A stretch of DNA of 64,000 bases from a phage. The notes below the pieces were generated by a model that was not told the origin of the DNA, did no database searches, and saw nothing but the letters and a program-made list of their open reading frames with translations. Position 1 is the first letter of the stretch; every line of letters begins with the position of its first letter. Below are positions 25,588 to 51,089 of the stretch, piece by piece. Location of the stretch: the NCBI GenBank assembly GCA_026066175.1, contig GCA_026066175.1_4721.1; one strand, written 5' to 3'. The translations under genes and the position numbers were made by a program.

Positions 25588-25592
25588 GATAA

Positions 25593-25621: not shown

Positions 25622-25653
25622 CATTTATGCCGTCGTTCGATGCTTTTAGCGCA

Positions 25654-26934
25654 TCAGAAGCGATTTACAGGACGACCTGTCCACGCGTTCAGGATAGTGT
25701 TACGTTCCATCTCAGCGCGACGACGCAGCCCGTTCGGCGTCTGCGGTGCTGGTGGCATCCCCCATCCTGCAGGTTGCGCACCCATGCCTGGCCAAGCCCC
25801 AGTATTGAACATCGTACCGTTACGTTCCGCTACACGGTTCATCAGCATATCGAACGTACTATTACCTCCTGGTTGGTTAGCACCTCCTTCCCACGGATTA
25901 GGTTGAACCGGCGCGGTCTTACCTAACAGGTTATCGATGACATTACCTGATGCAGTAGGACGTGGTTGCATACCTTCATGTGCGGCGGCTGATGGATTTG
26001 GCTTAACCGTAGGTTGCGGTCGACTGTTGAGCGTTACACCCATGTTGTATTTCGCTGGAGGAATCTGTCCGCGATGCTGATTAATCGGTTCAAAGTCCTC
26101 AACCCAGGTAACGTCGCAATACCCATTCTCTTTACCGTCGTACTTATCACCAAACAGTTTGATGAGGTTATTCAACGGTTCCATCAGCTTAGCGAAGCTG
26201 TGGATAAGGCAATCGAAATACGGTGCATGCGGATCGCTTGACCCAGCGTTATACGTTTCACTGACTTCGCTTGCGTGCGGGATAACATACTCAACCAGGT
26301 TTCTCAGCATGTTAAGATCTTTCTTGGAGATCTCAACACCACACCAGTACGTTTTCTTATCTTTCGTGCTGATGTGTTCTTCTTCCATGAACGGGAAAGT
26401 AACAACGGCAACACGGGTCATCTTCTTACCCATGTAGGTTGCACCAGTACGACGAAGATAGATTTTAGACAGCGTATACGGTGTATCACGTTTCAGCCAA
26501 ACGGTAACCAGTTTACCCAGGGTCGTTAACGTCTTATCGCTGGCGTCCGCAAGGATGTTGAAGAACTCTTTCTGCTTCGGACCGAAACGTTTTGCTTCTT
26601 TCGGGTTGATCGCGGTTTCAACCATCCAAATCAGCATGGAGCACAGCGTAGCGTTAAAACGGACAACCATCGCACGACGCAGGAACTGCAGCACTTCCGA
26701 TTCGCCGTTCATCACGTCTTCACTTAACGGATGGAACAGCACACGTTCGGCAAGATGGCTTCCTGTACGCACTTCGGTAACCGGCATCAGCAACGGCATG
26801 CTTTCCACGGTAGCGGCAACTGCAACAACCTTACCATCACCATCTGTAAAGCGGTACTCTAACTCATGAGCATCGTTTTCAAAATAGTTAACGCTTTGTA
26901 GCGCTTTACGATAAGCTTCAATAAGCTTCGACAT
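25654..26934 (-). CDS. Hypothetical protein (426 aa)
   Basis: ORF on the gene strand; Pro/Gly-rich C-terminal tail. Confidence 0.45.
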   Translation of the reverse strand: MSKLIEAYRKALQSVNYFENDAHELEYRFTDGDGKVVAVAATVESMPLLMPVTEVRTGSHLAERVLFHPLSEDVMNGESEVLQFLRRAMVVRFNATLCSMLIWMVETAINPKEAKRFGPKQKEFFNILADASDKTLTTLGKLVTVWLKRDTPYTLSKIYLRRTGATYMGKKMTRVAVVTFPFMEEEHISTKDKKTYWCGVEISKKDLNMLRNLVEYVIPHASEVSETYNAGSSDPHAPYFDCLIHSFAKLMEPLNNLIKLFGDKYDGKENGYCDVTWVEDFEPINQHRGQIPPAKYNMGVTLNSRPQPTVKPNPSAAAHEGMQPRPTASGNVIDNLLGKTAPVQPNPWEGGANQPGGNSTFDMLMNRVAERNGTMFNTGAWPGMGAQPAGWGMPPAPQTPNGLRRRAEMERNTILNAWTGRPVNRF

Positions 26935-26962
26935 ATTGTATTTCCTTTTCTTTTACGACAAT

Positions 26963-26983
26963 GGTCCCCCATGACAGGGGACC
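26963..26983. terminator. Hairpin (ggtcccc / ggggacc)
   Basis: Inverted repeat in the intergenic gap. Confidence 0.4.
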
Positions 26984-26989
26984 TATGGA

Positions 26990-28576
26990 TTAGAAGTTGC
27001 CTTTGGTGGTTACAGCATCAACCAGGTTGAACAAATCGATGCTCAGCTTATACACTTCCTGCTGGCTACGGTTAAGCAGCGGGCTATAAGCAGAAGGGTT
27101 GATGTTCGGCATGGTGTATGGAATCGGGGCAGAGCCATCAACGCTGATCTTGAACTGGCTATCCAGGAACAGGTTAATTGCGCCACTTACCATAACCGCA
27201 TTCGGGTTGTTCCCTAACATCGACGGTAAGATGTTGATGATCATATCGGAACGCATCTGCTCAGCAGCACGGTTACAGTCGTAGCCTTTAATGAACGGTA
27301 CCGCATCGGTAACCGCAACCGCCCACTGGCCTGGCATGATGCCCAGCTCTGGGTGACCGTGGTTGTCTGCAATGAAACGGAACGATTCCAGCATGCGATA
27401 CGTCATCGCCGCAGGCATCATGGACGCCAGCGAGGAGCAATAGATCGTTGGATAATCGATCACATCCCAGCTTTGGCTATCCGTTGGCATCCAACCGAAT
27501 TCGGTGGTTGCTGATGTACCGCGACGGGCTTCCACATACGGGAACAGCGTCAGGACATCACGGATATGTTCACCGAAATGCCGTTTCATTTCACCCCAGC
27601 TCAGGCTACCGTTAAACGAAAAGCCCTCATCACGCATGATCTCATTGAACATCGTGTGCGCAACCAGCGGTTGTTCACGGACGTATTGAGAAGCCTCAAC
27701 GTAAACATCCTCGTTGTTGGCCTCGCCGGGATGAGAACCTAGCTCGAAGGTCTGACGAACGGTACCCACGCTATCGAACGCTTTCTTCAGATAGATGGTT
27801 GGGATATTTGTATCGATGCTGGCGGGTTTTACCTTCTCTGTTGCAAAACACAGCGCAGCATCCATACCACGAACAACCGGTTCCTGTTGTGGTCGGTATG
27901 TTGAGTGGTTCACGACGTCCGCATACATCGGGTCGAACTGTTGCATCACGTTCTGCATCGAAGGATCCATGAACTGATTGTCCATACCACCATTACCGAG
28001 CCAACGTGCAGTCGATGCGTAGGTCAGCGTATCCTGCACACGGGTACTGAACTGAACGTCGTTGTTCATTGGGTCATACGCCCCGGTAAGCAGATGGATA
28101 GCATCTTGAGGAGCTGCACGTACAACCTGTTTACCGAACATATCAACGGTGGTTGTTTCCAGCACGATAATGACGTTGGTGAAGAAGAACTGCAATTCGT
28201 TCGGTAGATCTTGTACGCGGGTTGTGTATGCATCCAACGGAACAGAATAATCGGTGTATCCAGACACGTAATGAACACGTTTGCTTCCTGGAGCTAACGC
28301 AACCGATTCTTCTGCTGCCATCATGAAATGGAAACGACGGGTACCCCAACCATTAGCAATCTCTGAAACCCCTTCCGGCTGTGCGGTTTGCTCTAACATC
28401 CCGGCAGCCAGTTTATTGATCGCTGATGGTGTTGTCGCGGTGCCGAATCGCGTTGTGTTAATAAACTCTTCCAGGCTATGCATGCTGTCAGCGTGGAACT
28501 GAATTGGACGACGGTGCACATTGTTGTATGGTGCGGTTTCAACCATCAGGATTTCACGAACATTCATCGATACCAT
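26990..28576 (-). CDS. Hypothetical protein (528 aa)
   Basis: Long ORF with consistent coding composition. Confidence 0.45.
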   Translation of the reverse strand: MVSMNVREILMVETAPYNNVHRRPIQFHADSMHSLEEFINTTRFGTATTPSAINKLAAGMLEQTAQPEGVSEIANGWGTRRFHFMMAAEESVALAPGSKRVHYVSGYTDYSVPLDAYTTRVQDLPNELQFFFTNVIIVLETTTVDMFGKQVVRAAPQDAIHLLTGAYDPMNNDVQFSTRVQDTLTYASTARWLGNGGMDNQFMDPSMQNVMQQFDPMYADVVNHSTYRPQQEPVVRGMDAALCFATEKVKPASIDTNIPTIYLKKAFDSVGTVRQTFELGSHPGEANNEDVYVEASQYVREQPLVAHTMFNEIMRDEGFSFNGSLSWGEMKRHFGEHIRDVLTLFPYVEARRGTSATTEFGWMPTDSQSWDVIDYPTIYCSSLASMMPAAMTYRMLESFRFIADNHGHPELGIMPGQWAVAVTDAVPFIKGYDCNRAAEQMRSDMIINILPSMLGNNPNAVMVSGAINLFLDSQFKISVDGSAPIPYTMPNINPSAYSPLLNRSQQEVYKLSIDLFNLVDAVTTKGNF

Positions 28577-28577
28577 T

Positions 28578-30164
28578 TTATTTTTTTCCTCTTAAATTTA
28601 CTACATGTTCATTTAATCGAACAACTAATTGCACAAGCTGCTGACGGATATCTGCTGGGCAAAGCATCAATCCTTTACGATCAGCGGGGACTTTCTCAAG
28701 GATTTCAGGGCCTGCTGCTGAAACATCCCAATCCCATTCACAAAACGCATCGGCTACCATGTTAATACCGACAACCGGTAAAGTTGTACGTTCATCTTCA
28801 TACATGGCATGCGGATACAATTTATTGACGGTAATAATCTCCTGTGGTTTTAATTGGTGGATAATCTGATAAACATCATCACGTTTAACCTGGATGCCTA
28901 CGGTTAATGCGGCCAGTTGAGGGAAACCCCAATGGTCTAACAAGCATGCCGCAATCGCTAACGCTTTTGCCTGATGCACGGCTTCAATCGGTGCCAGACT
29001 TCTCGCCGGAAGATGGCTGTCCAACAACCATTGCGCCAGTGCTCGGCATCCGCGATTGATCGGTTTTAACTCAACGGTATCATCATGCTTCGCGTAGGTG
29101 TATCCGTCGTAACGTTTTGCGATACGCGCATACATGTCTTCAACCTTACCGTACGGTGCGGTTTCATCAACGTCGTGTAACACCCGTTCCATCTGGGTAA
29201 GATAAGCGATATCAAGAATGAGTACACGTGGTGAACGTTTATCTTTCACCATCAGCGCATCAATCACACCTTGGCTATCTTCATCTTGCGCATTCCCTCG
29301 CGGAGTTTTCTCACGTATGGGTCCGCTGAAACGACGTTCCGTACAGAGGTTATTCACATAACTGAAAATCAGCGTCACCAGATGCGTACAACTGACCAAC
29401 ACCCCATCTTTAACGACGGGCTGCACGGCTTGGTCCAAATCACGTACCGCAAGGCGTCTGACGATGGCTTGCGAACGCAACCAACCCGGCACTTTTTCTG
29501 TTGACATGTAATCCACGGTCATCGACAACGTGATCTTTTTATCGCCTGTCTGTGCACGGATATAGTCTTCCAGTCGGTCATAAGCTGCGATATCATGAAT
29601 GCGTGTTTTATACATCAGCGACATCGCCACTTCTTCTTTACGTACTGTCCCGTACGTTTTCCCCGCATCAATCAGGAACTCAGCCCAGATAGGCACCATC
29701 AAACGAACGTAAATCGCTAACGCGGTTAACTCAACATAATCGTTTCGTAAATAGGTTTTCTCTGGGATATCATCCTCGCCTAATGTCGTTTTCATATCCG
29801 GCGGTAATTTTACCCAACCTGGGGTATTACACAACGCCAGAATCTCTTCGTATACAACAGGTTTGTAGATTTCACCAACAGCGCGGCTCAGCTCCTCCAT
29901 TTGTTGTTGTGGCGCAATGTAATTATCCATCGCTTCACGTGCTTTAACGAACCCTTCAAAGATATCATCGGTTCGACGTGGGTTCTTTTGCTCTATCCAG
30001 GCAAGATACTTGTTAATCTCTCGCATCTGATTGCTGGCCATATCCCCATCGATCTTGATATACCCTTGGCCTGAAAATTCCACGGTACGTCCATCACGAT
30101 GTTTGATAAGATAATGGTCTAGCTTTTCTTTGCCTTGCGTCGTAATGACGGGCACAATGTGCAT
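28578..30164 (-). CDS. Hypothetical protein (528 aa)
   Basis: Long ORF; promoter motif copy D lies about 55 nt upstream. Confidence 0.45.
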   Translation of the reverse strand: MHIVPVITTQGKEKLDHYLIKHRDGRTVEFSGQGYIKIDGDMASNQMREINKYLAWIEQKNPRRTDDIFEGFVKAREAMDNYIAPQQQMEELSRAVGEIYKPVVYEEILALCNTPGWVKLPPDMKTTLGEDDIPEKTYLRNDYVELTALAIYVRLMVPIWAEFLIDAGKTYGTVRKEEVAMSLMYKTRIHDIAAYDRLEDYIRAQTGDKKITLSMTVDYMSTEKVPGWLRSQAIVRRLAVRDLDQAVQPVVKDGVLVSCTHLVTLIFSYVNNLCTERRFSGPIREKTPRGNAQDEDSQGVIDALMVKDKRSPRVLILDIAYLTQMERVLHDVDETAPYGKVEDMYARIAKRYDGYTYAKHDDTVELKPINRGCRALAQWLLDSHLPARSLAPIEAVHQAKALAIAACLLDHWGFPQLAALTVGIQVKRDDVYQIIHQLKPQEIITVNKLYPHAMYEDERTTLPVVGINMVADAFCEWDWDVSAAGPEILEKVPADRKGLMLCPADIRQQLVQLVVRLNEHVVNLRGKK

Positions 30165-30210
30165 AACAACCTCTTTTCGCGGTTCCCTGTTAAACGTTTT
30201 CTATAACGCC

Positions 30211-30248
30211 ATCAAGGAGGTAATATAAGCGTGAATAATTTTGGATTC
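30211..30248 (-). promoter_or_regulatory. Candidate phage early promoter, copy D
   Basis: Plus-strand ggaggtaatataagcgtgaataatt matches the motif shared with copies A to C. Confidence 0.35.
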
Positions 30249-30366
30249 CTGCTGAGTCATCGCTCAGCATGCAAGGCATCCCGCCGAAGCGAGACACCTT
30301 GCACTAACGGAAAATACTCGCGTTACCTTCTGAATCGAAGACCCAGAATGCGATACTAAAGCATCA

Positions 30367-31155
30367 TTAGAATGCTAAGCCATCAAAGGCGATTGACGGA
30401 TCATCATCGTCATTTGCGCTAGGCGCGTCCCAACGCGTGTCAGGGGCTGCTGGAGCCGAACTTGAGGCATTAGAGTTACCGTTGTACTGGCCGTTACCAG
30501 CATTACGGTTACCGCCACCGTTGTTATTGTTACGATTGTAGCTGTTGTTACCATTACTTACGCTACGGCTTTCACCGTCAAAGTTGGTTGCGAGGATGCT
30601 TGGTAACACCGCACGATGAATACGTACGAATTCCAGCGCACAAAGCGGAGAAACAACACCGATCTGCAAAGGTTGTCCAGACTCATCAACCAAAGCGTGG
30701 AAACGCGGTGGTTTGAACACGAATTGGATGTTCGGTTTTTGGTATGCGGTTACCGCGATGTACACCGAACCATCGTCATTCTTACCGACCCACGTTGTGC
30801 TCTCGGTAATCTGCTTTTTCTTACCTGGGTTATTGCGATCATCGATAACCTTTTCGTTCTTCATCGCAAAGCGTTGACCAGGTTTACCCTTAGCAACCTG
30901 CTCAAGGATCGCCAGTAGGTTATAGAACGCGTATGAACTCATACGTGCCCAAATGCTTTCAGCACGACCCTGTTGGTCTTTACGTCCTGTATAAACCGTA
31001 ATACGTGGTTGATTTTTAGCGACGCTAATTTTCAATGATGGAATTGAATTACCGCCCTCAACCTTCTCGTCCGCCCACAGTTTCCAGTTGTTGTCGTCAT
31101 AAGCCGTAGGAATGATATTTCCTTGTGGTTTACTGCCCGAATTCCAATTGCTCAT
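30367..31155 (-). CDS. Putative ssDNA-binding-like protein with Gly/Asn-rich linker and acidic C-terminal tip
   Basis: C-terminus ...NGGGNRNAGNGQYNGNSNASSS...DDDDPSIAFDGLAF resembles the disordered linker and acidic tail of bacterial and phage SSBs. Confidence 0.3.
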   Translation of the reverse strand: MSNWNSGSKPQGNIIPTAYDDNNWKLWADEKVEGGNSIPSLKISVAKNQPRITVYTGRKDQQGRAESIWARMSSYAFYNLLAILEQVAKGKPGQRFAMKNEKVIDDRNNPGKKKQITESTTWVGKNDDGSVYIAVTAYQKPNIQFVFKPPRFHALVDESGQPLQIGVVSPLCALEFVRIHRAVLPSILATNFDGESRSVSNGNNSYNRNNNNGGGNRNAGNGQYNGNSNASSSAPAAPDTRWDAPSANDDDDPSIAFDGLAF

Positions 31156-31229
31156 TTTCAGCCTCGTTACGTAGTGTGAATCAATTTCTGACTTCAGATG
31201 ATAGTCAATATTAGTTAAAAATTACAGCC

Positions 31230-32018
31230 TCAACGAAACATGTCCAACAGAAAACGTTTCGCAAACGGGTCTCGTAATTGGTTAACGCCGAAGCGGGTAC
31301 GGTCTTCCGTGGTTAACGGATTCCATTGACTTTGTTTCGCAAGGTCTAATAACATCCTTTTTACTTTCACCGGTCCGCTATTGAACTGTACCGCTTGGTC
31401 ACCGAACGTACCCAGGGTCATTTTCGTAAAGGGGAGGTTCGCAACCTCTGGACGATCACCCCCCGTCAGTTTGGTTGACCATTGATGTTTTCGTTTCAAA
31501 GTTCCGGTATGGCTCTCTACCAAAATAAGTTCACCAAAACCGGTTCTTGCTAACAGGTCAGAAACATAATGGGTGGTGATATACGACGTCTTGGTTATCG
31601 TGGGTAATTTACAATCCATTGATTCGATATTCGGAAACTTCTCTACCGACGATAGCAACCCATGATAAAGTGCTGCAAGCCCTTTTTGTTTTTCGGTATG
31701 CGGCTCCTTGTGTATGGCGTGCGGATAAACACGCTTGATCGATGCGTAGGTTGGCGCATAAATCCGTAAACGAATATGCGGGATAACTTCGTTAGCCAGT
31801 TGCCGTAATTGCGACAATTCGTTTTGGAAATCACCAGCAATCATTGACACCGGTAATCGGTGCTGCTCAACATCCTCGTAGCTTTCAACGAAGTTACGTG
31901 CTAACGTACGCAGGTTAAAAAGCCAATCCATCGGCGTCTCCGGCTGTTGCTGTATTGCCGTGAGTGTTACCGACGTCCCTACCGATAACGGATAATCACC
32001 TAACGAGCGGGTGTACAT
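31230..32018 (-). CDS. Hypothetical protein (262 aa)
   Basis: ORF on the gene strand. Confidence 0.4.
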   Translation of the reverse strand: MYTRSLGDYPLSVGTSVTLTAIQQQPETPMDWLFNLRTLARNFVESYEDVEQHRLPVSMIAGDFQNELSQLRQLANEVIPHIRLRIYAPTYASIKRVYPHAIHKEPHTEKQKGLAALYHGLLSSVEKFPNIESMDCKLPTITKTSYITTHYVSDLLARTGFGELILVESHTGTLKRKHQWSTKLTGGDRPEVANLPFTKMTLGTFGDQAVQFNSGPVKVKRMLLDLAKQSQWNPLTTEDRTRFGVNQLRDPFAKRFLLDMFR

Positions 32019-32029
32019 ATCACTCCCTC

Positions 32030-33175
32030 TTATAGCGGTAACGTATCAAGCCATGCAGAAACCTTCAGGGCATCAACGTTCGGATATTTATTGCGTACAC
32101 GTTCAACCAATAAACGCTTCACGTTGTCTTTTGTCAAGTCCCCACCTTTCTCGATAACGTTGTTAACAAAACTGTTCTTTAATAACGATTGGTTATTTTT
32201 GGCATCGGTTTTAATCGACCAAATGAAACCTGGGTATAAAGCAGGAATAGAACGGAACGTTTTCGCTGCATCATCTTCCTTATCGCAACGGATTCGGATA
32301 TGATCCCCTTTTTTCAATGAGGCAAGTTCCCGTTCCAAAACACGTACGATTTCATCGCCAACAAGACCATGCAATTTTATCGTCTTGTAGACATCGGCTT
32401 TCTTGTTCTCAACGAACTCCCATTGGTCATTGAACGATTCGGTTAATGCGTATCGAAGATAACCTTTCGGACCTTCTTCTCCATGCGCAAGACGTCCGAA
32501 CGAACCTCCCACCATGATACGCCCTTTCTGCGACTGTAAGTGAATATGCCCACTTACAATCCATCCTTGCGTTTTCTCCACCATCACGTTATACGCATCG
32601 CTGCTATGCACACATGTTGCTTTTAACGCTTCGGGTGGTAGTTGATACTCAAACGCACCGTGCATCAGAATAAAGTCGGGCGATCCTTTCTCATCAATGA
32701 GTTTGTTCACAGCTGCTAACGTCACGTCTGGGTCATGGCTGTAGTTATCAGGAAGATAAAGCACTTTCAACCCGAAGTCTTCATCGACCATGCAGAGATC
32801 GTCATAGTAACGAACTTTCGCACCGATTTCCATGACTTCATTCTGTTCCACAAACCACTGGCTTTGCTTCTGATCGTGTAAGTTGGTGCCCTCAAGAAAG
32901 ATCAACGTAATATCGTGTTTTCTTGCGTATCTTAACAGCCAGGTACCCCAGGCACGAACAGCAACCACATCGCTTGTTACAAAGGTCGTAATACGGTCGA
33001 AGACATCACCACTGAATGTAATCACGTCGAGTAACGCCGGGTCCTCTTTCGTGATGTAATAACGCAGCTGGCTAATCAGGTTTACCGTTGGCGTTTGACG
33101 ATGGATAAAATGAATATCCGATAAATTGATTCCTCGTAATACCCCAGGCGTTTTATTTCGGCTGAAGTCTCGCAT
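32030..33175 (-). CDS. Calcineurin-like metallophosphoesterase, Mre11/SbcD-like nuclease candidate
   Basis: Ordered motifs LSDIHF, FSGDVFD, EGTNLHD, LMHGAF and VSGHIHL. Confidence 0.45.
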   Translation of the reverse strand: MRDFSRNKTPGVLRGINLSDIHFIHRQTPTVNLISQLRYYITKEDPALLDVITFSGDVFDRITTFVTSDVVAVRAWGTWLLRYARKHDITLIFLEGTNLHDQKQSQWFVEQNEVMEIGAKVRYYDDLCMVDEDFGLKVLYLPDNYSHDPDVTLAAVNKLIDEKGSPDFILMHGAFEYQLPPEALKATCVHSSDAYNVMVEKTQGWIVSGHIHLQSQKGRIMVGGSFGRLAHGEEGPKGYLRYALTESFNDQWEFVENKKADVYKTIKLHGLVGDEIVRVLERELASLKKGDHIRIRCDKEDDAAKTFRSIPALYPGFIWSIKTDAKNNQSLLKNSFVNNVIEKGGDLTKDNVKRLLVERVRNKYPNVDALKVSAWLDTLPL

Positions 33176-33951
33176 TAGAATTCCTCTAAATCGTTGCTGC
33201 TGATCGTCCCGGTTGTCGACGGAATATTGCTACGACCTGCTGTTGTCGAAGCCGGTGCGGCCAGGTTCAGTCCGTTCAATAACCCACGCTCTTTTACCGT
33301 ACGACGTGAGCCGTCACGAACATCATAAAGAGGTACGTTATAATGGTCGAAAATCCGAAGCCATTGTACGTAATCCGCAACCACATGTTCTTTGCTCTCG
33401 TTCGGCGCAAAACGATCGAGTTGGTGGTCAACGTAAGCTTTTGCGCTTTCAGGATTGAAATTGTACTGTCGGCGGGCCTTGTCCACCATCGCAAGAAAAC
33501 AGGTGTTAGGGTCGCGGTTGATATACGAACGCGTTCTGATGAAAATCGCTGGGACCGTAAACAGAACCTTGTTGTTATTTCCATCAGCAACAATGTTAAC
33601 AGCACGGTGTGGCTGACCGGCGATTTTACACCAGTCGTGAACGATGGTACTATTACTCAACATCTCTGCGTATTCAGGGTCCTGCGAAAACATGCCTGCG
33701 AACGGATGCAGGAAATGTCTCACGAACAACGATTCAGGCAGGATGTTGGGACGCGTCATCTCCTGTAACCCTTTTCGTAGAAGCTCGCTGTTGTCGACTA
33801 ACTCCTGCCATATGTCCGGTCGTGTTTTCGGAATAGAAGGATCCTGAGCGCGGCGGATACGTTCTTCCTCGTTTACCACCACTACCCCAGCCGGATACCC
33901 TAGTAAATCCGTTCCTTCGTTAACGTTGCTGTTAGTTTGGCGCGCCTTCAT
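33175..33951 (-). CDS. Hypothetical protein (258 aa)
   Basis: ORF on the gene strand. Confidence 0.4.
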   Translation of the reverse strand: MKARQTNSNVNEGTDLLGYPAGVVVVNEEERIRRAQDPSIPKTRPDIWQELVDNSELLRKGLQEMTRPNILPESLFVRHFLHPFAGMFSQDPEYAEMLSNSTIVHDWCKIAGQPHRAVNIVADGNNNKVLFTVPAIFIRTRSYINRDPNTCFLAMVDKARRQYNFNPESAKAYVDHQLDRFAPNESKEHVVADYVQWLRIFDHYNVPLYDVRDGSRRTVKERGLLNGLNLAAPASTTAGRSNIPSTTGTISSNDLEEF

Positions 33952-34339
33952 TTACTTCCTCCTGCCATTTAACAAAGTTACCGCGTTCAGATCGCAAAAC
34001 ACCGCTTAAATCGTACGACATGCCTTTCTCTGTGACAATCCCTCCAATCTGGAGATCGACACGTTCCGTCGTTGAATCAATATACTTAACACGGACTTTT
34101 AGTTCCACGCGATCATAATACCGCATTAAATAGTCGTACAACATTCGATACGTCGCATCTTCTAATTTAGGTGCGCTGTATTGCGATGTTGCAATCAGGT
34201 ACGGTAATGAAACGATGGAACCTTGGTAACAATACGATTGGGAGTAGTTCGATATTGCAAAATTGGTCATGAGTCCATCTAGCTTCTTACCTGACGCTGT
34301 TAAAAAGCTTGATAGTCCTGGTAATGGATTCGACGCCAT
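33932..34339 (-). CDS. Hypothetical protein
   Basis: Start trimmed to ATG 34339..34337, preceded by GAGGAG; this removes the apparent overlap with 34353..34805. Confidence 0.4.
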   Translation of the reverse strand: MASNPLPGLSSFLTASGKKLDGLMTNFAISNYSQSYCYQGSIVSLPYLIATSQYSAPKLEDATYRMLYDYLMRYYDRVELKVRVKYIDSTTERVDLQIGGIVTEKGMSYDLSGVLRSERGNFVKWQEEVNEGAPN

Positions 34340-34352
34340 GAGGAACTCCTCG

Positions 34353-34805
34353 TTATTTTCGGTTGAGCGCTGCCAGCGTTTCGTAATCAGGCATGTGCCC
34401 CAATTGAAGATCAACAGGAACAGATGTTTGTGCCGCTGGTCCGTGGAATATTCGTTTATGCATATCGATATACCCGCATTCCAAACAAACAACATCAGCC
34501 AATTCCGACGGGTGATGTGGCGGGTCAATCCGTAAACGTTTATAATATTCCAACTGCCACCAGGCATGGAAATAGTTGTTGTATGCTGCTGACTTCTGGT
34601 TCGCGCATTTAAGTCCGTAAAGCACCCAAAGCTCAGCCATGAATTTCTTCATGTTTTCAATCGCGGGTACATCAGGTTTCATCACGGTAGAAATAAAAAG
34701 CAATGGTGAGTTATTATCACCAAAACAACCTTGTAGTGTATTACCAAAACGTTCAATATCCAGGCAAAGATACTCGCTTGATTTACCCTCAAAATGAACC
34801 GTCAT
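34353..34805 (-). CDS. Hypothetical protein (150 aa)
   Basis: ORF on the gene strand. Confidence 0.4.
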   Translation of the reverse strand: MTVHFEGKSSEYLCLDIERFGNTLQGCFGDNNSPLLFISTVMKPDVPAIENMKKFMAELWVLYGLKCANQKSAAYNNYFHAWWQLEYYKRLRIDPPHHPSELADVVCLECGYIDMHKRIFHGPAAQTSVPVDLQLGHMPDYETLAALNRK

Positions 34806-34929
34806 CGATATCTCCCATTAAAAACGTTTTCTATTTCATAGAGTGCTGGAAATTCGTAGAAAATTACAAAAAGAAAAAGAAGGGCGCGGCCCCTCCCCAC
34901 CCGAGGGCAGGGAGAAACCGCAGATATCA

Positions 34930-35394
34930 TTAAACCAGCGCCGCGATAACGTCGTTGACGTTGCGACCGCGCAGCTCAGCCGCTAAGCGAATCACTTCAT
35001 CCAGGGAACGCGTTGTACGAATCTTGGCCACTTTCCAATTTTCAGGATACTGTTCGAAGTTCAGCAGCCAGGTCATGACTTTCGCTTGTTCCACACCGTT
35101 CAGCTTGATGGTCGTACGCGGATTGGCTTTAAACCACTTCTTGCTTAACTGTGCCATACGGCGAACAGGGTAAGCATAAGCGCGAGTCCAGTCTTTGGAC
35201 AGATTGTCGAGTAATTCACGATAGCTGCTGTCGTAGTCTTTGTTAATACGACGTAACAGCCAGTTGGCGGTCATCTGGTAGAGTTTATCGTCTTCACGTA
35301 AACGCATACCTGCCATCGCTAAATAAACAATAAGGCCCGCACCCATAATCAGAGACAGGATAAACAGAATTTGAGTTTCTTGAGCTAATGTCAT
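34930..35394 (-). CDS. Putative membrane protein with one N-terminal transmembrane helix
   Basis: ILFILSLIMGAGLIVYLAMAG hydrophobic segment; start trimmed to ATG 35394, preceded by GAGGAT. Confidence 0.4.
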   Translation of the reverse strand: MTLAQETQILFILSLIMGAGLIVYLAMAGMRLREDDKLYQMTANWLLRRINKDYDSSYRELLDNLSKDWTRAYAYPVRRMAQLSKKWFKANPRTTIKLNGVEQAKVMTWLLNFEQYPENWKVAKIRTTRSLDEVIRLAAELRGRNVNDVIAALV

Positions 35395-35485
35395 TTTACT
35401 ATCCTCGGATTTATTAGGATTTGATTTCCAATATAAGGACAACGCCTTATACAGTCGATTGATGTTGTACATCGCATCTGTGATG

Positions 35486-35525
35486 TATCACAGAAGTAAT
35501 ATAGCCGTGAAAATTATTGTATTAA
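35486..35525 (-). promoter_or_regulatory. Candidate phage early promoter, copy B
   Basis: Plus-strand cagaagtaatatagccgtgaaaattattgtatt is nearly identical to copy A. Confidence 0.4.
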
Positions 35526-36361
35526 CGTGTTCTCCTGTCACGATGGGTATATGACTGTAATCCGATGTCCATATGCGGTAACGTCAATGTTTGCCAGATC
35601 TGTTGTGCGTAGCGATCGAGTGTGTAGTCGTTGGTAACGCAGTCAACAGGTTCAATGAGATGCGTCGTATATTGACTTTTCTCTGAAAACGGATCAACGT
35701 TAGCAGTATCTCCTAGTCCGCTTTTCACCGTGAAAACAAGACGAGTAACCACCATCGCTTTACGTTGTTGCTCGTTATAACGAAGGCCACGATAAATCGC
35801 ATAGCTCGCGCCTTTCAGGCTTCGGGTATAACGAAGGTCAGATGTTGTCCCGCCAATTTGATGCAACATCCAGTCTAATGTATCCCGCCAGTATTTATCA
35901 TCCGTGTCAGGTACCTCGATACCGTAACGGGTGGGAAGCATATCCAGAAGCAGTTTGTAGAGTCCACGACGCAAGCCGTGTTCTTCTGTTTCTGATAACA
36001 TCTTTCCTCCAACATAACGAGAAATACGTGTTCGTAAATACGCACGAATAAACATGCACGTCATTACTGTTTTCGAGTGGCTGGTGATGTCTTCAAAAGT
36101 ATCAACACTGAAACTCGTTTCGATCAACCGTCCGTTAAAGTACAATGCAGCTACATACATCGCGCTACTGCTGTCTCGGTCGATGTTCAAACGACCGCAG
36201 ATATTGGCTGCGTCGTTCATGGTAAATTCGAGTTTGTCGTGTTCAATACGGTAGATAATATCTTCTTGGGTTGCCAGGCTCGCAATACGACGATAGCCTG
36301 GAGTAGTACGTTTAACGCTCATAATGGTCCTCGATTTCAATTTTAGGATTACAGACGGCAT
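35522..36361 (-). CDS. Hypothetical protein (279 aa)
   Basis: ORF on the gene strand. Confidence 0.4.
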   Translation of the reverse strand: MPSVILKLKSRTIMSVKRTTPGYRRIASLATQEDIIYRIEHDKLEFTMNDAANICGRLNIDRDSSSAMYVAALYFNGRLIETSFSVDTFEDITSHSKTVMTCMFIRAYLRTRISRYVGGKMLSETEEHGLRRGLYKLLLDMLPTRYGIEVPDTDDKYWRDTLDWMLHQIGGTTSDLRYTRSLKGASYAIYRGLRYNEQQRKAMVVTRLVFTVKSGLGDTANVDPFSEKSQYTTHLIEPVDCVTNDYTLDRYAQQIWQTLTLPHMDIGLQSYTHRDRRTR

Positions 36362-36364
36362 AAA

Positions 36365-36390
36365 CCCTCCCCGCGCTATGCAGGGAGGGT
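36365..36390. terminator. GC-rich hairpin (ccctcccc / gggagggt)
   Basis: Inverted repeat in the intergenic gap. Confidence 0.45.
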
Positions 36391-36412
36391 AGCCATTGGT
36401 TGTCTTCGCCGG

Positions 36413-37051
36413 TTAGCCTAATTTACCTCCGGCGATGTTCGTGAAGTCTTCACCATCAGGGACCTGCAACAGAATACGTGCCATGTCCCAGTTGGTCAAT
36501 GTGATTGCTTTATCATCGATACTCAGTTCTGGTAGGTCGAGCTCATGATCATCGAACTCGTAGGAAATGCTCCATGTTTCATCAGTTTTAGGATCAGTTA
36601 TCAGCACACCGTCTGTTACACGCATGTAATCAGGGTGCAGCTCATTACTGAACGTGCTGAACGGATCGGTGTAACATTCAGCATAACCCTCGATCTGCTG
36701 ACGCTGTGCCTTCGTACGTAACTCAGGACACGCCATGATCAGCTGTCGGGAAATGCCGTTAGCCGCTCGGAAATCTTCCACGGTGATGCACGGCATCACC
36801 ACATCGTCATGGAAGATATTCTCCGACTGTCTCAACAAGGTCTTACGAAGTTCAGTATAGTTGATCTGATTGAACGTATCGAATGTTGCTAACGATTCCG
36901 CGTAAAAATGCTTTACGTGTTCGTTTGCGCCACCGAGACTGTTCATCAGCTTATGACCATACTCCATAAAGCTTTTATCGAGCCCAGTATTCATTTCTCC
37001 GAACCGTAGTGCACGATAGCTGTCTCGTCCACCTGTAAATATTTGCGCCAT
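36413..37051 (-). CDS. Hypothetical protein (212 aa)
   Basis: Immediately downstream of the beta-prime gene; N-terminus TGGRDSYRALRFGEM...FMEYG loosely recalls the beta GGQRFGEME...EAYG block. Confidence 0.4.
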   Translation of the reverse strand: MAQIFTGGRDSYRALRFGEMNTGLDKSFMEYGHKLMNSLGGANEHVKHFYAESLATFDTFNQINYTELRKTLLRQSENIFHDDVVMPCITVEDFRAANGISRQLIMACPELRTKAQRQQIEGYAECYTDPFSTFSNELHPDYMRVTDGVLITDPKTDETWSISYEFDDHELDLPELSIDDKAITLTNWDMARILLQVPDGEDFTNIAGGKLG

Positions 37052-37066
37052 TACAGGCGTCCTCCT

Positions 37067-37304
37067 TTAGCATTGGTTATTGATTGCTTCTATTTCATCG
37101 ATATACGGTTCTACGTCATCGCCCTCCACGAATTCGTTGAACCAACAGTCAATCGTTGAGATAACCGGTGACTGATGTTCACATTTCTTAGATACCTTAA
37201 ACGGAACGTTGTTATCCATCATACCGAGTTCGGGTCGGAATCGCCCGAAATGTTTCGCAGTCCAAATGTCTGGGACGATATGGTTGTTCATAGCGTCTCC
37301 GTCG
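37067..37304 (-). CDS. RNA polymerase beta-prime N-terminal subunit, exon 3
   Basis: Frame is open upstream of the track ATG back to the proposed 3' splice site; the exon begins c-gac-gga-gac (xDGD) and continues AMNNHIVP...LGMMDNN, which aligns with beta-prime DGDQMAVHVP...LMMSTNN. Confidence 0.6.
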
Positions 37305-37683
37305 CTGTTTGTCGACTATATCTTCATCTTCATTGCGAAGAGACTCTCGTTTGGGTTTGTGTTTAACAAAGCCTACTCTACTCAACATCGCGTCTTTCGA
37401 TAGTCTGTGAGCACACATCTTAACGAATATTCGTGGGTTCCTACAGACAGGTGAATATTCTTGTTGAGATGCTTCGCTGCGGATTATTCCCGTCCTACCT
37501 CTTTTACCATACCCAGTTCATTACGCTGGCCCTCATCGATGTCACCATGATGAGTTGGTGTGTAGTCCGATTACAGAAACTTCCCGTCAATTAGAGAGTT
37601 TTAACTATGCTCCTGTTACCAGGAACCAGATCCCGACGGCATCAATAAATCAACGTAAGTTATTGATTTAATTGAAAAAACTG
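37305..37683 (-). ncRNA. Group I intron 2 (about 379 nt)
   Basis: Minus-strand core elements AAUUGACGGGAAG (P), AAUAAUCCGCAGCG (Q), GCUCACAGACUAUCG (R) and GAAGAUAUAGUCG (S). Preceding exon ends in U, intron ends in G, and an internal GAUCUG can pair with exon CAGAUU. Confidence 0.6.
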
Positions 37684-37702
37684 AAATCTGCATTATCTAA
37701 AC
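37684..37702 (-). CDS. RNA polymerase beta-prime, 19-nt mini-exon (exon 2)
   Basis: gtttagataatgcagattt supplies (C)LDNADF when joined to the flanking exons. Confidence 0.55.
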
Positions 37703-38071
37703 CTTCGATATGGTTCGCTACGCCATACCCGCACATACGTGCAGCTTACGTCTTTCACGTAAGAAGAGACTATATCTTTCACCCTCAGCTTTACCTGTTA
37801 GGGGCTCCCATTTCGGCGGTCGTTTGACCGGTGGTTTCCCACGCCGCTTGGCCCTAACGCCCGTAAGCGATAGTCGTTGAGCACATCTCCGTTCTGGAGA
37901 CTTCGCTGCGGATTCCCCAATCCTTACTGCTTTTACCGTACCTGAATGATTAGTTCAGCCCCATGCTCTGTTCCCAGGCATGGTTGGTGAGCAAGGCTCT
38001 AAGTAGGTTCCCGCTATTAGAGAGTTCCTCGTGATAGCATTACTGTGTCACTGGGCCTAATGACCCTTTCA
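37703..38071 (-). ncRNA. Group I intron 1 (about 369 nt)
   Basis: Minus-strand core elements AAUAGCGGGAAC (P), GGAAUCCGCAGCG (Q), GCUCAACGACUAUCG (R) and GAAAGAUAUAGUC (S). Proposed P1 pairs exon AUGAUCU with GGGUCAU across a UGAAA loop; intron ends in G. Confidence 0.55.
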
Positions 38072-39305
38072 AGATCATCACGCTTAACCCGATGGTATTA
38101 TCCTGCGGGTCGCGTTTAACCTTGGTGATTTCAAGACATTGGTTACTGCTACGGTCAAGTGATGGATTTCGAACAAAGCCACACACAATCCCATCGAACG
38201 GTGTATCAGCAATAAGCTCGTCATGCAGCTCGCTCATCATCGGATGATAATTGCGGACATGCTCTGCAACGAACGCACGGGCTGCTCTTGGTGAATAACC
38301 ACGATGGAATAACTTGGATTGGATATGTTCTTTATTGGTTAGTGTAAATGGTGCGTACGGAAAATGCAGATGATAATAACGATGGTTTGCTGTTATCGAA
38401 CTGATGACCGTACGTGTGGTGAATGGATGTAATGTACCTAATATGTTCTTACGTGTGATCCCTTTCTTCTTACCAATGAACTCATCGAAAATCGCCGAGT
38501 GATACTGCAACAGCTTCAATTGCACTTTCGCCATCCAGTTTTCTTTCTTTCTGGCGCTTAGTGGCGTGGTTGGATGATAGATGCTATTCAATGTTCCGAT
38601 GGCGTCTATCGCACCTTCCATTTTGCTGTCAGCGTAACGTCCTGTTGGCGTGTTCTCGATCACGAACATCATGGCTGCAGGAAAGCTGATGTACTGACTG
38701 AAGAATTTATCCCGATGAATACGGATGAATTCGCGTAGCGTATCAACCTTCTCCATGTTCTTCGGTCCACGTAGTGTTGGGCCTTTATACAAGATCTCCA
38801 TGATACGATCGAAGTTCTGTATAAAGCTATTTATACCGCGTCGTATTCCGAATACATCGAATTGCTGTTCCAGATAGTTCTTAAGTTCGATCGGTCGTTT
38901 TACGTTCGGACGGTAACTGGCATCAATGAGCCACGTCATCGTTTCAAAGCTTTTGATATTCAACTCGCTTGCCAGCACGAGATGGACCAACGGGTTAATG
39001 AACGCATCGATACCTTCCGGTACGCGCGCCCAGACCGTTGAACGAATCTCTTGTTCTGCTGGATAAGTGACAACCGTTTTACAGTTCGGGCACACCGTCC
39101 CTAATAACTCACCGCGATTATAGAAACCACAACCGCATTGCGGGGTGATATCCAAGGTATCGCTAGAGTAAACACGGGTGATGAAACTGTTTAATTTCTT
39201 CTTCTCTTCCACGACCTTCGTATCATAATCGTTCAACAATATCGGCGTAAAAGGAAGTTCTGCGAGCTGTCTATCGAAACTGACGATATCGAGCATGATG
39301 GCCAT
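38072..39305 (-). CDS. RNA polymerase beta-prime N-terminal subunit, exon 1
   Basis: N-terminal zinc-binding CGCGFYNRGELLGTVCPNC and RNPSLDRSSNQCLE matching beta-prime RQPTLHRLGIQAFE. The track ORF continues to a stop at 38040 through intron sequence (LKGSLGPVTQ). Confidence 0.6.
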
Positions 39306-39397: not shown

Positions 39398-41296
39398 TTA
39401 GAACAGGTTGAATGCCCCGCCCATGCCGTTACCGCCCACATTCGGACGATCGTTACGTGCGTAGATGTTACCGCTGATGGTACCCAGACCACGAGCACGT
39501 GCTGCCATGTTACCACGAACAGCGGTACCTGCCAGATGCTGGATGTTCTCAGGACGGATGGTGAAGCCTGCTTCAGCAGCCGCTTCAATCAGTGCCTGCA
39601 GCGCCAGCGGATCGAAATCATAACGCATCGCCCAGCCAGTTTGTTCCCAGCTACCAGACAGAACGCGGTCGATGATTTCGTGACGAGCAACCACACGCTG
39701 AGACATCGACATATCGGTACGGTCGAAGCTGTCTTCCCAAGCTTCTACGGTATCCGGGTTAGTGATGTTCATCATGTACAGATCGTCCATATCACGAATA
39801 TCGTGACGGTTACCGTCCTGGTGGTTGTAGTGACCCAGCGGGATACGGTTACCGGTCGCGTAGACCAGCGGTGAGCCGTACGGATATTTCTTGCTGAAGC
39901 AACCCAGGGTAACATCATCGAACGCACGGAAGAGGGCTTTGTAGCCTTCGGAGTATTCCTGTACGTCCCCTTCAACATTACCCGAGAAGATCTTCTCAGC
40001 CGCCGGGATCATACGCAGCAGCCAGCTGTACTCACCTTCTTCTGGTACGTCGATAGAGATCAGCAGAGACGGATACAGAACCTGTTGCAGGAACTTGTAA
40101 ATCTGCTCGTTGGTTTGCGTAGACAGATCCAGCGGTGCAGTCACTTCAGGATCCAGCACCATCGCCAGAGCACCTGGGTTATGCGGACCAATACCACGAG
40201 CTGCGTTGCTGATTAAAGACTGCGCCCACGCCATGCCGCTGTTCAGCGTAGCGATGGTACCAATCAGACCCAGCACGAAGCTGTTCGGCGTGAACGCATC
40301 CAGTTCCAGCGGATACATGCTGGTCATTACGTAGCGCGGTTGGTACTGTACAGTTGGCGGTACCGGATAACCGTTAACCAGAACAGGACCTTGCTGGAAG
40401 GTCGGGTTCTGCGGGCTGTAGGTCAGATCGATATAACCGGTGGATGCAACCAGACGCTGCTGGCTATCGTAATCGCCCATCGCTTGACGGATGCGGTTAG
40501 AGATAGTTACAGTAATGTCGGAGCGTACCGGGTTACCCGCGATATCGCTATCCTGCATGCCGCTGGTGTTATACTGAACGCTACTGATCGGCTGATCGCT
40601 TGCCATCATACCCAGGTTGAACTGAGGCAGGCCCAGTCTGTCAGCAAAACGCATTTCGGTTGCCGTCTGGATCGCGTTATCCGCTGCGGAAAGCAGGGTG
40701 GTTGCCAGATGCGCAGATTCAGCAGTGATTTCATTGGTCACAACAGCCAGACCAGCGATACGTACCGTACCGTTAGCTTTACCACCGATAGCCGCATACA
40801 TCGCTGCCATGACTTCGTTGATGAACGTGCCGTTCAGGTTATCCACCCAAGTACATGGTACCAGGATGTTACCGTGAGGACCACGTTCTTCACGACGTGG
40901 CAGCGGAGCCAGGCCAGCAACCAGCGGAAGGACGTAACCGAAGAAGTGGTTATGATCACCCACTTTTACACCGCTCATCACAACCAGAGTCGGATACGGT
41001 ACGCTGTACTGATTCGGGTCAACCGCAACAAAGATGAAGTCGTCTTTGAACTGGGTATCTTCCAGATATTTCTCCATCAGACGACGGAGATTCAGTACCT
41101 GCTCGGAGCCGGTATTACGGCTGATACGACGGCTCAGTGTACGGTTAATCGTACGCATCGTATGAGTTACTTTAGGACGGTCAGCAAAATCTGCAGCGGT
41201 TTCGACCGCCTCGTTAGCATGCTGCGCCGTGCGGGTTTCAGCCACGCGGATGTCTACGTTATCGTTACCGTTATTGTTACGTACGTCTAAGCCCAT
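39398..41296 (-). CDS. Candidate chimallin-like phage nucleus shell protein (632 aa); major capsid protein not excluded
   Basis: Size of about 70 kDa, high-expression-like codon choice, its own promoter motif and terminator, and proximity to a PhuZ-like tubulin and phage RNA polymerase genes. Confidence 0.45.
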   Translation of the reverse strand: MGLDVRNNNGNDNVDIRVAETRTAQHANEAVETAADFADRPKVTHTMRTINRTLSRRISRNTGSEQVLNLRRLMEKYLEDTQFKDDFIFVAVDPNQYSVPYPTLVVMSGVKVGDHNHFFGYVLPLVAGLAPLPRREERGPHGNILVPCTWVDNLNGTFINEVMAAMYAAIGGKANGTVRIAGLAVVTNEITAESAHLATTLLSAADNAIQTATEMRFADRLGLPQFNLGMMASDQPISSVQYNTSGMQDSDIAGNPVRSDITVTISNRIRQAMGDYDSQQRLVASTGYIDLTYSPQNPTFQQGPVLVNGYPVPPTVQYQPRYVMTSMYPLELDAFTPNSFVLGLIGTIATLNSGMAWAQSLISNAARGIGPHNPGALAMVLDPEVTAPLDLSTQTNEQIYKFLQQVLYPSLLISIDVPEEGEYSWLLRMIPAAEKIFSGNVEGDVQEYSEGYKALFRAFDDVTLGCFSKKYPYGSPLVYATGNRIPLGHYNHQDGNRHDIRDMDDLYMMNITNPDTVEAWEDSFDRTDMSMSQRVVARHEIIDRVLSGSWEQTGWAMRYDFDPLALQALIEAAAEAGFTIRPENIQHLAGTAVRGNMAARARGLGTISGNIYARNDRPNVGGNGMGGAFNLF

Positions 41297-48930: not shown

Positions 48931-48987
48931 AAACTCTCCTACACGGCATAAAAGCCTGCCCCGAAGGACAGGCTCATCATGATACTT

Positions 48988-49185
48988 TTAACCTTCCATC
49001 TTCAATGAGGGATGGTTGACGATATGTGCATGTTTGGTTGGGTCATACGACTGATAAGGGAAATAGCCATGCCATTGACGGCCTTGACATTTCGTACACA
49101 GGAACTGACCATCACGGCGTTGATGCTCGTATGCCAATTCAGTGCTATCAACGTGACCGCAACGTTCGCAGATAAACAGCGACAT
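48988..49185 (-). CDS. Small zinc-ribbon protein (65 aa)
   Basis: CERCGH ... CTKC spacing. Confidence 0.4.
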   Translation of the reverse strand: MSLFICERCGHVDSTELAYEHQRRDGQFLCTKCQGRQWHGYFPYQSYDPTKHAHIVNHPSLKMEG

Positions 49186-49201: not shown

Positions 49202-50182
49202 TTAGAAAAGCAAGAAACCGCTGTTCTTCGCTTCCGCTACGGTTTCATCACCCACCTTCGGTGCTTGTTGACGTGCGTTACGATGTTCAACAAAACGTTT
49301 TGCTTCGTCCGCGATTTGTTTGATAATACCCCCTAAACGATCGGTGCTTAATACGAACGATGTCGCTTCACGAATCGGGCTGCTTTCCGGCACAAAACCA
49401 TCACAGCTATAAATAGCATTAACACCCATGACTTTTGTTGCATCTTTCGGATACAACGTACAGAAAGCAATCGGGCTATCATGCTCTTTGGTCCACTCGT
49501 ATCCCATGAACGTGTTCAATTCGGTGATGGTCGGTTCCAAACCGGTAACACGAGGATGGTTTAAGAAGTTCTCCAGATCAGCGCTATCCAAGCGACGGTT
49601 CTCACCAGAGAACAACACACAGAGTTGGCTGATAACGATCTGGACATCCAGGTTAACGTCTTGCTCCGATTTCCCGTTTTCGCCATTCATGTGGTAGCTG
49701 ACAATCACAGGACGTTTCAACCCTTCTGCGGCTGCCATCAGTCCTTTGAACGTACGGTCAGCATTGATGGTCTGACGTTCATCGTCGAAGGAGGCAACGA
49801 TACAACAGACGACACGCTCACCGCGTTCCAGCAGGTTAGCGACCAGCGCAGGGCCTGCAACGGAACCCGAACCACCGCTTAAGCTGAAGACGACGATGTT
49901 GAATTTACCTGGCGTATGCTTATTAAGAATACCTGGGATTTGTGAGCAGATCAGTTCAGCATTCTCATCGCGTTTCTTACCGGAACCATCAAGCTCGCGG
50001 CCTGCTGCATCTTTAAAGATGTAAATGTGATCATCGTCCAGTGCGCTATCACGTAGGTTAGCACGGCTGGTATCAACATACGTCATGCTGTGTAATCCTT
50101 TCGCGACTTCGCCTTCAAATGCTGAGCCGATTTCGCCGCCACAACCACCAACCGCCCAAATATGTACTTGGTTCTCTTGCAT
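49202..50182 (-). CDS. phuZ: Tubulin/FtsZ-like GTPase, PhuZ-like
   Basis: N-terminal WAVGGCGGEIG and the tubulin-signature-like SLSGGSGSVAGP; size of 326 aa; ATG preceded by TTAGGAG. Confidence 0.55.
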   Translation of the reverse strand: MQENQVHIWAVGGCGGEIGSAFEGEVAKGLHSMTYVDTSRANLRDSALDDDHIYIFKDAAGRELDGSGKKRDENAELICSQIPGILNKHTPGKFNIVVFSLSGGSGSVAGPALVANLLERGERVVCCIVASFDDERQTINADRTFKGLMAAAEGLKRPVIVSYHMNGENGKSEQDVNLDVQIVISQLCVLFSGENRRLDSADLENFLNHPRVTGLEPTITELNTFMGYEWTKEHDSPIAFCTLYPKDATKVMGVNAIYSCDGFVPESSPIREATSFVLSTDRLGGIIKQIADEAKRFVEHRNARQQAPKVGDETVAEAKNSGFLLF

Positions 50183-50246
50183 GTGAACTCCTAACTTGAT
50201 ATGTATTTAACGCACAATGAATCTTTCTTTACTAAAGGGGTGACCC

Positions 50247-51089
50247 ATGGGTGCTATTGACTACAGTGTCGATCGTATCTGCCGTACAATACCGGCAGAT
50301 ATTCTACAGTATTGCTATATCGATCGTTACGATTGGCGTAACCGCTATCCGCGTTCCGTTGAAGATATCATTACCGATTGGGTAATCCGTAAACGGGTTA
50401 TCGGAGACATCGATATCTACGGGGGGCTACAGACCGTTATTCCTCTTGATGATGCAGGCGTTACGATTGAAGAAGTCACCATTAACTGTTATGTTTTCCA
50501 TATTCCGCTGGAAGCGACACAAGGACGTTATATCACGTCAGCCTTGTCGATTATCTCTGGGAGCGTGAATAACTACGGAATCAACTATAACGGTCAATGG
50601 GGGGCGTTCAACCAAACCCAGTTCCAACGACAGCTTTGCGGATGGAACCCCGCAAGCAACGCATTGCAACAAGGGATGAATGCATTCGGTCCGGTGAACA
50701 TCCTCAGTACTGCTAACGTTGACATCATCGCACCTAACACCATCATGGTGAACAACGTCACACCGGTTCAATTCCCGTTGAGCTTACGCTGTTTCCTTGC
50801 CCATGATCCAGAACTAACCAACCTCAGCATGGAAGTCTGGAACGACTTTTACAAGCTCTGTTTATACGCCACACAAAGTGACATCTATAACAGAACCGTT
50901 ATTCGTCTCGATCGTGGTGTTACCGCACAAGGTCAAGAAGTCGGTGCATTCAAGGAATACATCGATCGCTTCGCTGATGCGGAAAACACCTACCAGGAAT
51001 TCCTGAACGAGACGTGGGCAGGCGTTGCTGCATGGAACGACCCACAAACGAAACGTCGGGCAATACGTCTGCAAACCGGTTACTTCTGA
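50247..51089 (+). CDS. Hypothetical protein (280 aa)
   Basis: ATG preceded by AAAGGGG; followed by a hairpin. Confidence 0.45.
   Translation: MGAIDYSVDRICRTIPADILQYCYIDRYDWRNRYPRSVEDIITDWVIRKRVIGDIDIYGGLQTVIPLDDAGVTIEEVTINCYVFHIPLEATQGRYITSALSIISGSVNNYGINYNGQWGAFNQTQFQRQLCGWNPASNALQQGMNAFGPVNILSTANVDIIAPNTIMVNNVTPVQFPLSLRCFLAHDPELTNLSMEVWNDFYKLCLYATQSDIYNRTVIRLDRGVTAQGQEVGAFKEYIDRFADAENTYQEFLNETWAGVAAWNDPQTKRRAIRLQTGYF

Follow-up and report, generated by a model that had tools for sequence, protein, structure and literature searches.

A PhuZ tubulin gene of the Goslar type in an assembly-associated Goslarvirus

The phuZ locus and its surroundings

The window analysed here is a stretch of 64,000 nucleotides from a phage contig (GCA_026066175.1_4721.1). 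Positions 49202-50182 are filled exactly by a minus-strand open reading frame of 326 codons, from ATG to stop; on the plus strand the frame is full of stops over the same interval. The first-pass annotation had claimed a 326-aa product here without giving a strand; it is present as an intact ORF, and the two motifs that had been quoted from it, AVGGCGGEIG and SGGSGSVAGP, are both found in the translation. The features of the locus and of the wider window are collected in Table 1.

Table 1. Coordinates of the phuZ gene, its sequence elements, its neighbours and related features in the 64,000-nt window
Feature	Position	Strand	Remarks
PhuZ coding sequence (326 aa + stop)	49202..50182	-	ortholog of Goslar gp234 / YP_009820885
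Ribosome-binding site AGGAG	50188..50192	-	read off the sequence; 6-10 nt upstream of the PhuZ ATG
T1 nucleotide-binding loop AVGGCGGEIG (aa 10-19)	50126..50155	-	G12, G13, G15 nearly invariant
T4 tubulin-signature loop SGGSGSVAGP (aa 102-111)	49850..49879	-	G103, G104, V108 invariant
T7 loop / start of H8, D199-S-A-D202	49577..49588	-	D199, D202 invariant in 23 sequences
C-terminal tail (aa 306-326), ends ...VGDETVAEAKNSGFLLF	49205..49267	-	G322 and hydrophobic terminus conserved family-wide
64-bp intergenic region, phuZ / divergent adaptor gene	50183..50246	.	between the two start codons
DUF7484 gene, portal adaptor, Goslar gp233 ortholog	50247..51089	+	Pfam PF24302, E 6e-87; 98.9% identity to Goslar
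65-aa four-cysteine zinc-ribbon ORF, Goslar gp235 ortholog	48988..49185	-	begins 16 nt past the PhuZ stop
GC-rich hairpin + T-run, intrinsic-terminator-like	48948..48974	-	closes the PhuZ/zinc-ribbon unit; overlaps TTTATGCCGTG motif at 48942-48952
Chimallin (nuclear shell protein), Goslar gp246 ortholog	39398..41296	-	PHROG 4795, E 1.6e-53; Goslar annotation
Three multisubunit RNA polymerase beta/beta' fragments	38040-39305, 23034-25367, 19008-21047 (span 19008..39305)	-	PHROGs
DNA polymerase	42669-44822		
Large terminase	57876-60107		
Hairpin-TTTATGCCGTC cassette motifs	1756-1766(-), 13882-13892(+), 21710-21720(-), 25624-25634(+), 36354-36364(-), 44883-44893(-), 48942-48952(-)		

The short intergenic region upstream of phuZ is identical to that of Escherichia phage vB_EcoM_Goslar at 61 of 64 positions, against about 87% identity in the surrounding region, and both divergent promoters are presumed to lie in it. 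A sigma-70 promoter scan around phuZ did no better than shuffled sequence and identified no promoter. A generic terminator scan around phuZ was likewise no better than shuffles and missed the hairpin downstream of the zinc-ribbon ORF, which was spotted by eye and then folded (dG -20.7 kcal/mol, z -3.7; none of 200 shuffled sequences folded as stably). Because the two ORFs are separated by only 16 nt and are followed by this hairpin and T-run where Goslar has an annotated terminator, phuZ and the zinc-ribbon ORF probably form a two-gene, co-transcribed unit that ends at the hairpin.

The divergent DUF7484 gene (T4 gp13-like) is the only plus-strand gene within a minus-strand run. Its Goslar counterpart gp233 is the dodecameric portal adaptor in the virion cryoEM structure (bioRxiv 10.64898/2026.04.21.720040). 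The divergent adaptor/PhuZ arrangement is kept in SA002, AH06, PhiEaH1, the Xanthomonas phages and metagenomic loci, and was not seen in the PhiKZ-like phage checked. We considered DUF7484 as a partner of PhuZ and dropped it, as it is a virion portal adaptor and more widespread than PhuZ (249 versus 176 phage records).

The terminator hairpin belongs to a wider set. Seven intergenic cassettes in the window consist of a GC-rich hairpin directly followed by TTTATGCCGTC, with four exact copies against about 0.03 expected by chance; the one at 48942-48952(-) closes the PhuZ unit. Their make-up suggests a terminator hairpin joined to a conserved TATG-containing motif that resembles a promoter or start site. 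A TATG motif is carried by PhiKZ late promoters.

Apart from a few indels, the window aligns collinearly to Goslar positions 132-190 kb (78-91% identity), and the chimallin, RNA polymerase, DNA polymerase and terminase genes all lie in the collinear order. The RNA polymerase fragments match PHROGs 2987, 3295 and 3015 (E 1e-113 to 6e-181). A nucleus-forming lifestyle had been proposed in the first-pass annotation from PhuZ together with the chimallin candidate and RNA polymerase genes, and chimallin and RNA polymerase genes are indeed present; the reading is supported because chimallin, the RNA polymerase fragments, DNA polymerase and terminase share the window with PhuZ. Neither an Rfam search at gathering thresholds nor a scan for tRNAs returned anything in the window.

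Several segments of the window differ from Goslar. The DNA helicase ORF (16750-19011, minus strand) encodes 753 aa, compared with 524 aa in Goslar gp164, owing to a 228-aa insertion at 17893-18576 with both sides 98-99% identical to gp164. The insertion lies inside the Walker A loop (GSGK/T), starts with ALALHTPV and ends with VTHN followed by Thr, all of them hallmarks of an intein, here one that has Ala at position 1 and no counterpart in Goslar. It has no Pfam match, and PHROG matches over it are partial, to terminase, primase and helicase-loader families. In the beta' region (37291-38083, minus strand) the window is without a 1.4-kb HNH segment of Goslar, whose beta' gene has one group I intron with an HNH endonuclease ORF (gp186). 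The group I intron core is retained at 37305-37674, where Rfam RF00028 scores 49.1 bits, narrowly below its cutoff of 50. Goslar has no counterpart of another group-I-like element, some 356 nt long, at ~37709-38064 (27.9 bits, E 1e-4), which would make a tandem of two introns with about 35-70 nt between them. A 316-aa ORF at 829-1779 (minus strand) with a DUF7448 domain (E 3e-18; PHROG 2650, function unknown) sits in an insertion of about 880 bp missing from Goslar at junction 132925/132928. Finally, positions 4391-5107, near an exoribonuclease gene, and 14499-15158, at the 3' end of a BspA-like leucine-rich-repeat gene (13949-15403), have no detectable nucleotide similarity to collinear Goslar; since their flanks are 78-87% identical, these are local replacement or hypervariable segments.

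PhuZ sequence and predicted fold

The only PHROGs match of the ORF is PHROG 4733, annotated as tubulin PhuZ (E 2.1e-68 over residues 1-323 of 326). The sole Pfam match is the Tubulin/FtsZ GTPase domain PF00091 (E 6.9e-7), whose score of 30.2 bits is below the curated gathering cutoff of 33; the domain is matched by all 23 members of our PhuZ family alignment. An NCBIfam search gave no match and holds no model for the protein. The phage tubulin C-terminal domain PF22334 (TubZ_C_2) is matched in 19 of the 23 aligned sequences and is not matched by the window PhuZ, as in the Goslar clade; in the precomputed Pfam columns, P0001-P0003, P0006, P0014, P0015 and P0022 are likewise without it. Relative to the PF22334 model, the window PhuZ is diverged in sequence and conserved in fold.

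Searching the PDB by sequence returned 9pm9 and 9pmk as best matches (E 6.5e-217, about 98% identity), with PhiKZ gp039 (2.6e-29) and the PhuZ of 201phi2-1 (6e-15) next in rank. A profile built from the family alignment reaches the PhuZ proteins of PhiKZ (2e-67) and 201phi2-1 (1e-58), both end to end, and extends to TubZ, CetZ and FtsZ. By megablast, the 4 kb around phuZ correspond to Goslar at 88% identity, and the Goslar counterpart is named tubulin PhuZ in RefSeq (HOV27_gp234, YP_009820885). The two proteins are equal in length and identical at 319 of 326 residues (97.9%). The seven substitutions (T47A, G49D, V182I, N234H, S255N, Y297F and I298V) are conservative or surface-type, and none falls in an invariant or nearly invariant column of the 23-sequence alignment. 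At the nucleotide level 103 of 981 positions differ (about 10.5%), almost all of them synonymous sites; the 88 synonymous to 7 non-synonymous codon differences indicate strong purifying selection on PhuZ. Given the E values to PHROG 4733 and 9pm9 and this 88:7 ratio of codon changes, the identification lies far beyond chance.

Both GTP-binding loops have the residues expected of the superfamily: the G-G-x-G pattern of T1 is found as GGCGG (12-16) and the (S/G)GG(T/S)GS pattern of T4 as SGGSGS (102-107). In addition to the positions listed in Table 1, S105, G106, S107 and P111 of the T4 loop are nearly invariant in the family. The invariant columns (D37-T38-S39, N42, G66, G68, R71, G103-G104, N140, Y163, N166, D199, D202 and G262) span the nucleotide-binding loops and the T7 loop. 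The acidic T7-loop residue whose presence the first-pass annotation had proposed to check is there, with both D199 and D202 invariant. D202 aligns with D190 of 201phi2-1 PhuZ in the PDB sequence alignment and is, by this homology, the predicted catalytic T7-loop aspartate of the window PhuZ.

An AlphaFold2 model built on the 23-sequence alignment (mean pLDDT 87, pTM 0.86, disorder limited to the last few residues) has the two-domain tubulin/FtsZ fold and is nearest to the solved PhuZ structures. Foldseek against the PDB ranks 9pm9 first (TM 0.92), then PhiKZ TubZ/PhuZ 3zbq (0.84) and 201phi2-1 PhuZ 3r4v (0.81), with phage c-st TubZ, CetZ and many FtsZ at lower ranks (TM 0.53-0.69). The entry 9pm9 is titled 'PhuZ Tubulin from phage Goslar (locally refined monomer)' and was released together with 9pmk on 2025-12-24 (PDB). 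Thus the tests of family and fold named in the first-pass annotation came out in its favour: the profile searches connect the ORF to the PhuZ family over its full length and to the tubulin/FtsZ domain below its cutoff, and a tubulin/FtsZ fold, the absence of which was to count against the call, is predicted with the solved Goslar PhuZ as its best match. In the model, D202 lies where the T7 loop meets H8, and the helices on either side are 173-190 and 200-207. Ahead of the tail comes a long C-terminal helix (283-305); the tail ends in NSGFLLF, a glycine plus hydrophobic motif found family-wide, and three of the last 22 residues of the protein are acidic. In PhiKZ and 201phi2-1 the tail ('acidic knuckle') orders on the next subunit and approximately doubles the longitudinal interface (PMC3678025); the low tail pLDDT in our monomer model is consistent with a tail that would become ordered only in the filament (PMC3678025).

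The zinc-ribbon gene downstream of phuZ

The 65-aa ORF that follows phuZ has only weak, sub-threshold zinc-ribbon matches in Pfam, no PHROG match, and no mention found in the literature searched. Its homologs share the invariant residues C6, C9, C30, C33, W38 and H39. In Goslar, in two metagenomic relatives (PhuZ 55-60% identical) and in the Xanthomonas phages RTH11 and LucasX, the ORF comes directly after PhuZ and on its strand; in RTH11 it is unannotated. Among the sampled metagenomic homologs it directly follows PhuZ in five of six, and one gene intervenes in the sixth. In the Xanthomonas phages and these six metagenomic loci PhuZ is only 32-35% identical, compared with 40-48% for the better-conserved zinc-ribbon protein. 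Altogether, some twelve distant loci of chimallivirus-like type (L007-L010 and L015-L022) have the ORF after PhuZ.

This distribution raises the question of a functional connection. Reviews state that the factors that choose between vortex and spindle are unknown, and the 65-aa protein could be a hitherto overlooked factor that works with PhuZ, perhaps as a nucleator, an anchor or a regulator, and helps to set filament organisation, although we regard this as unlikely. The stronger idea of an obligate PhuZ cofactor was weakened by the phages that have one gene and not the other: no zinc-ribbon ORF was found downstream of PhuZ in OMKO1 (PhiKZ-like), PhiEaH1, SA002 and AH06, and in Xanthomonas phage Xoo-sp14 the locus still has the adaptor and zinc-ribbon genes but no PhuZ, and this phage is absent from the phage records matching PhuZ. 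Together with Pseudomonas phage DT01, where four genes separate PhuZ from the zinc-ribbon ORF, these cases weaken a dedicated partnership. The linkage is real and may be no more than conserved synteny; the PhuZ-adjacent zinc-ribbon gene is possibly the only new point of this analysis.

Filament function, relatives and distribution

Much of what the window PhuZ is likely to do can be read from Goslar, where GTP-dependent dynamic filaments that move the phage nucleus have been demonstrated (PMC9891218). Goslar PhuZ filaments are arranged as a vortex, which rotates the nucleus; the nucleus is not centred, and the filaments take no part in positioning it (PMC9891218; PMC12908238). Rotation proceeds at about 50 nm/s, the filaments push on the membrane, and rotation is thought to distribute capsids (PMC9891218; PMC12908238); this benefit is, in the literature, a model only. 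The Goslar D202A mutant polymerises at much lower expression than the wild type and is dominant negative (PMC9891218). It abolishes the vortex and lowers the proportion of cells with rotating nuclei from 97% to 29%, leaving nucleus position unchanged (PMC9891218; review PMC12908238). PhuZ is a non-core gene (PMC12908238; PMC12768965), non-essential and accessory, and is missing from about a third of chimalliviruses (PMC12908238). A paper on Avs5 that mentions PhuZ, Goslar and cryo-EM proved irrelevant, as the activator is a different protein.

We are highly confident that the ORF encodes PhuZ, a tubulin/FtsZ-superfamily GTPase of a Goslar-related Goslarvirus, for which we infer a Goslar-type mechanism. 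The steps are drawn from the 98%-identical Goslar protein, from the PhuZ proteins of PhiKZ and 201phi2-1, and from established tubulin/FtsZ biochemistry. GTP-bound monomers would polymerise head to tail, each subunit contributing D202 of its T7 loop to complete the GTPase site of the next, and the C-terminal tail clamping the neighbouring subunit. GTP hydrolysis would make the filaments dynamic. A vortex of such filaments would wrap the chimallin-bounded phage nucleus and push on the cell membrane, so that the nucleus rotates, and rotation would spread capsids over the shell for DNA packaging. In this scheme phuZ would be an accessory efficiency factor rather than an essential gene.

The closest relative agrees with the window in its neighbours, the 64-bp upstream region, the place of the terminator and D202. 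The Goslar phage itself differs as a species-level lineage, with about 87-88% DNA identity and a genome of 237 kb versus about 245-248 kb. More distant are the Pseudomonas phage proteins. PhiKZ PhuZ/TubZ (gp039; 3zbp, 3zbq) shares with the window protein the family, the fold, the GTP loops and the T7 aspartate, and has a subunit-binding C-terminal tail, but is only 26-28% identical and builds a bipolar centring spindle; at the locus, the PhiKZ-like phage OMKO1 lacks both the downstream zinc-ribbon ORF and an adaptor gene within 1.5 kb. The 201phi2-1 protein (gp59; 3r4v, 3j5v) is alike in fold and in D190, the counterpart of D202, and forms dynamic GTP-dependent filaments (PMC12908238). It differs in identity (23%), in its three-stranded filaments within a centring spindle, and in an acidic knuckle that is more pronounced than the three acidic residues of the window tail.

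Could the window PhuZ nevertheless centre the nucleus at midcell in the manner of PhiKZ or 201phi2-1, with a bipolar spindle anchored to the poles of the cell? The family and fold are the same, and in Pseudomonas phages PhuZ is classically a centring protein (PMC12908238). Identity to those proteins is however 26-28%, against 98% to Goslar PhuZ, which forms a vortex and whose D202A mutant leaves nucleus position unaltered (PMC9891218), and we judge a centring spindle very improbable. The first-pass annotation had described a spindle protein that centres the nucleus; its PhuZ assignment stands, whereas the centring role belongs to the Pseudomonas relatives and gives way to vortex-driven rotation, as in the Goslar clade.

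Rotation by a Goslar-type vortex is also to be weighed against DNA segregation. TubZ (Clostridium phage c-st, Bacillus pBtoxis), CetZ and FtsZ have the tubulin/FtsZ GTPase fold in common with the window protein, but are 12-16% identical to it and have other roles (DNA partition, cell shape and division) and other partners; the window PhuZ is a member of none of these three families. A TubZ-type partition tubulin, which would use a TubR/tubC centromere complex to segregate the DNA of a phage or plasmid, might be suggested by the detectable match to c-st TubZ (TM 0.66-0.67, E 1e-10), yet the PhuZ matches are 50 to 100 orders of magnitude stronger and the genome is that of a lytic chimallivirus. 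A domain search of the flanking genes revealed no TubR-like gene adjoining phuZ: the neighbours are the portal adaptor and the zinc-ribbon ORF, neither with a DNA-binding-domain match suggestive of TubR. We give a partition function next to no credence. Decay into an inactive accessory gene, conceivable for a non-core, non-essential gene that a third of chimalliviruses have lost (PMC12908238; PMC12768965), is just as implausible in view of the intact frame, the full conservation of the catalytic motifs, the synonymous excess of 88:7 and the recurrence of the exact sequence on dozens of contigs.

Public sequences already include the exact 326-aa PhuZ: it was found by reading 23 contigs, the index of the collection lists it in 53 blocks, and its 90% cluster has 111 members. 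It occurs in metagenomes and in assemblies of E. coli O157, Shigella sonnei and Salmonella, where it is labelled 'hypothetical protein'; the contigs include one of 244.6 kb in GCA_041342935.1 and reach 248 kb in length. Complete E. coli RefSeq genomes hold no copy. In the phage-genome collection the nearest entry is the 88% relative Goslar, and the window phage itself is not among the entries. The genus Goslarvirus was expanded in 2025 from one to 237 genomes in 38 species, described as 'bacterial assembly-associated' (PMC12768965), and the window phage belongs to this assembly-associated lineage of E. coli/Shigella/Salmonella chimalliviruses.

The PhuZ call is correct but already known, as the cell biology of the Goslar ortholog was published in 2022 and its structure entered the PDB in 2025. 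The gene can be renamed PhuZ with confidence in the assemblies that now call it 'hypothetical protein', and it marks such contigs as nucleus-forming Goslarviruses. The natural variants, from the seven substitutions relative to Goslar to the 111 sequences of the 90% cluster, could be used to map the filament interfaces mutationally.
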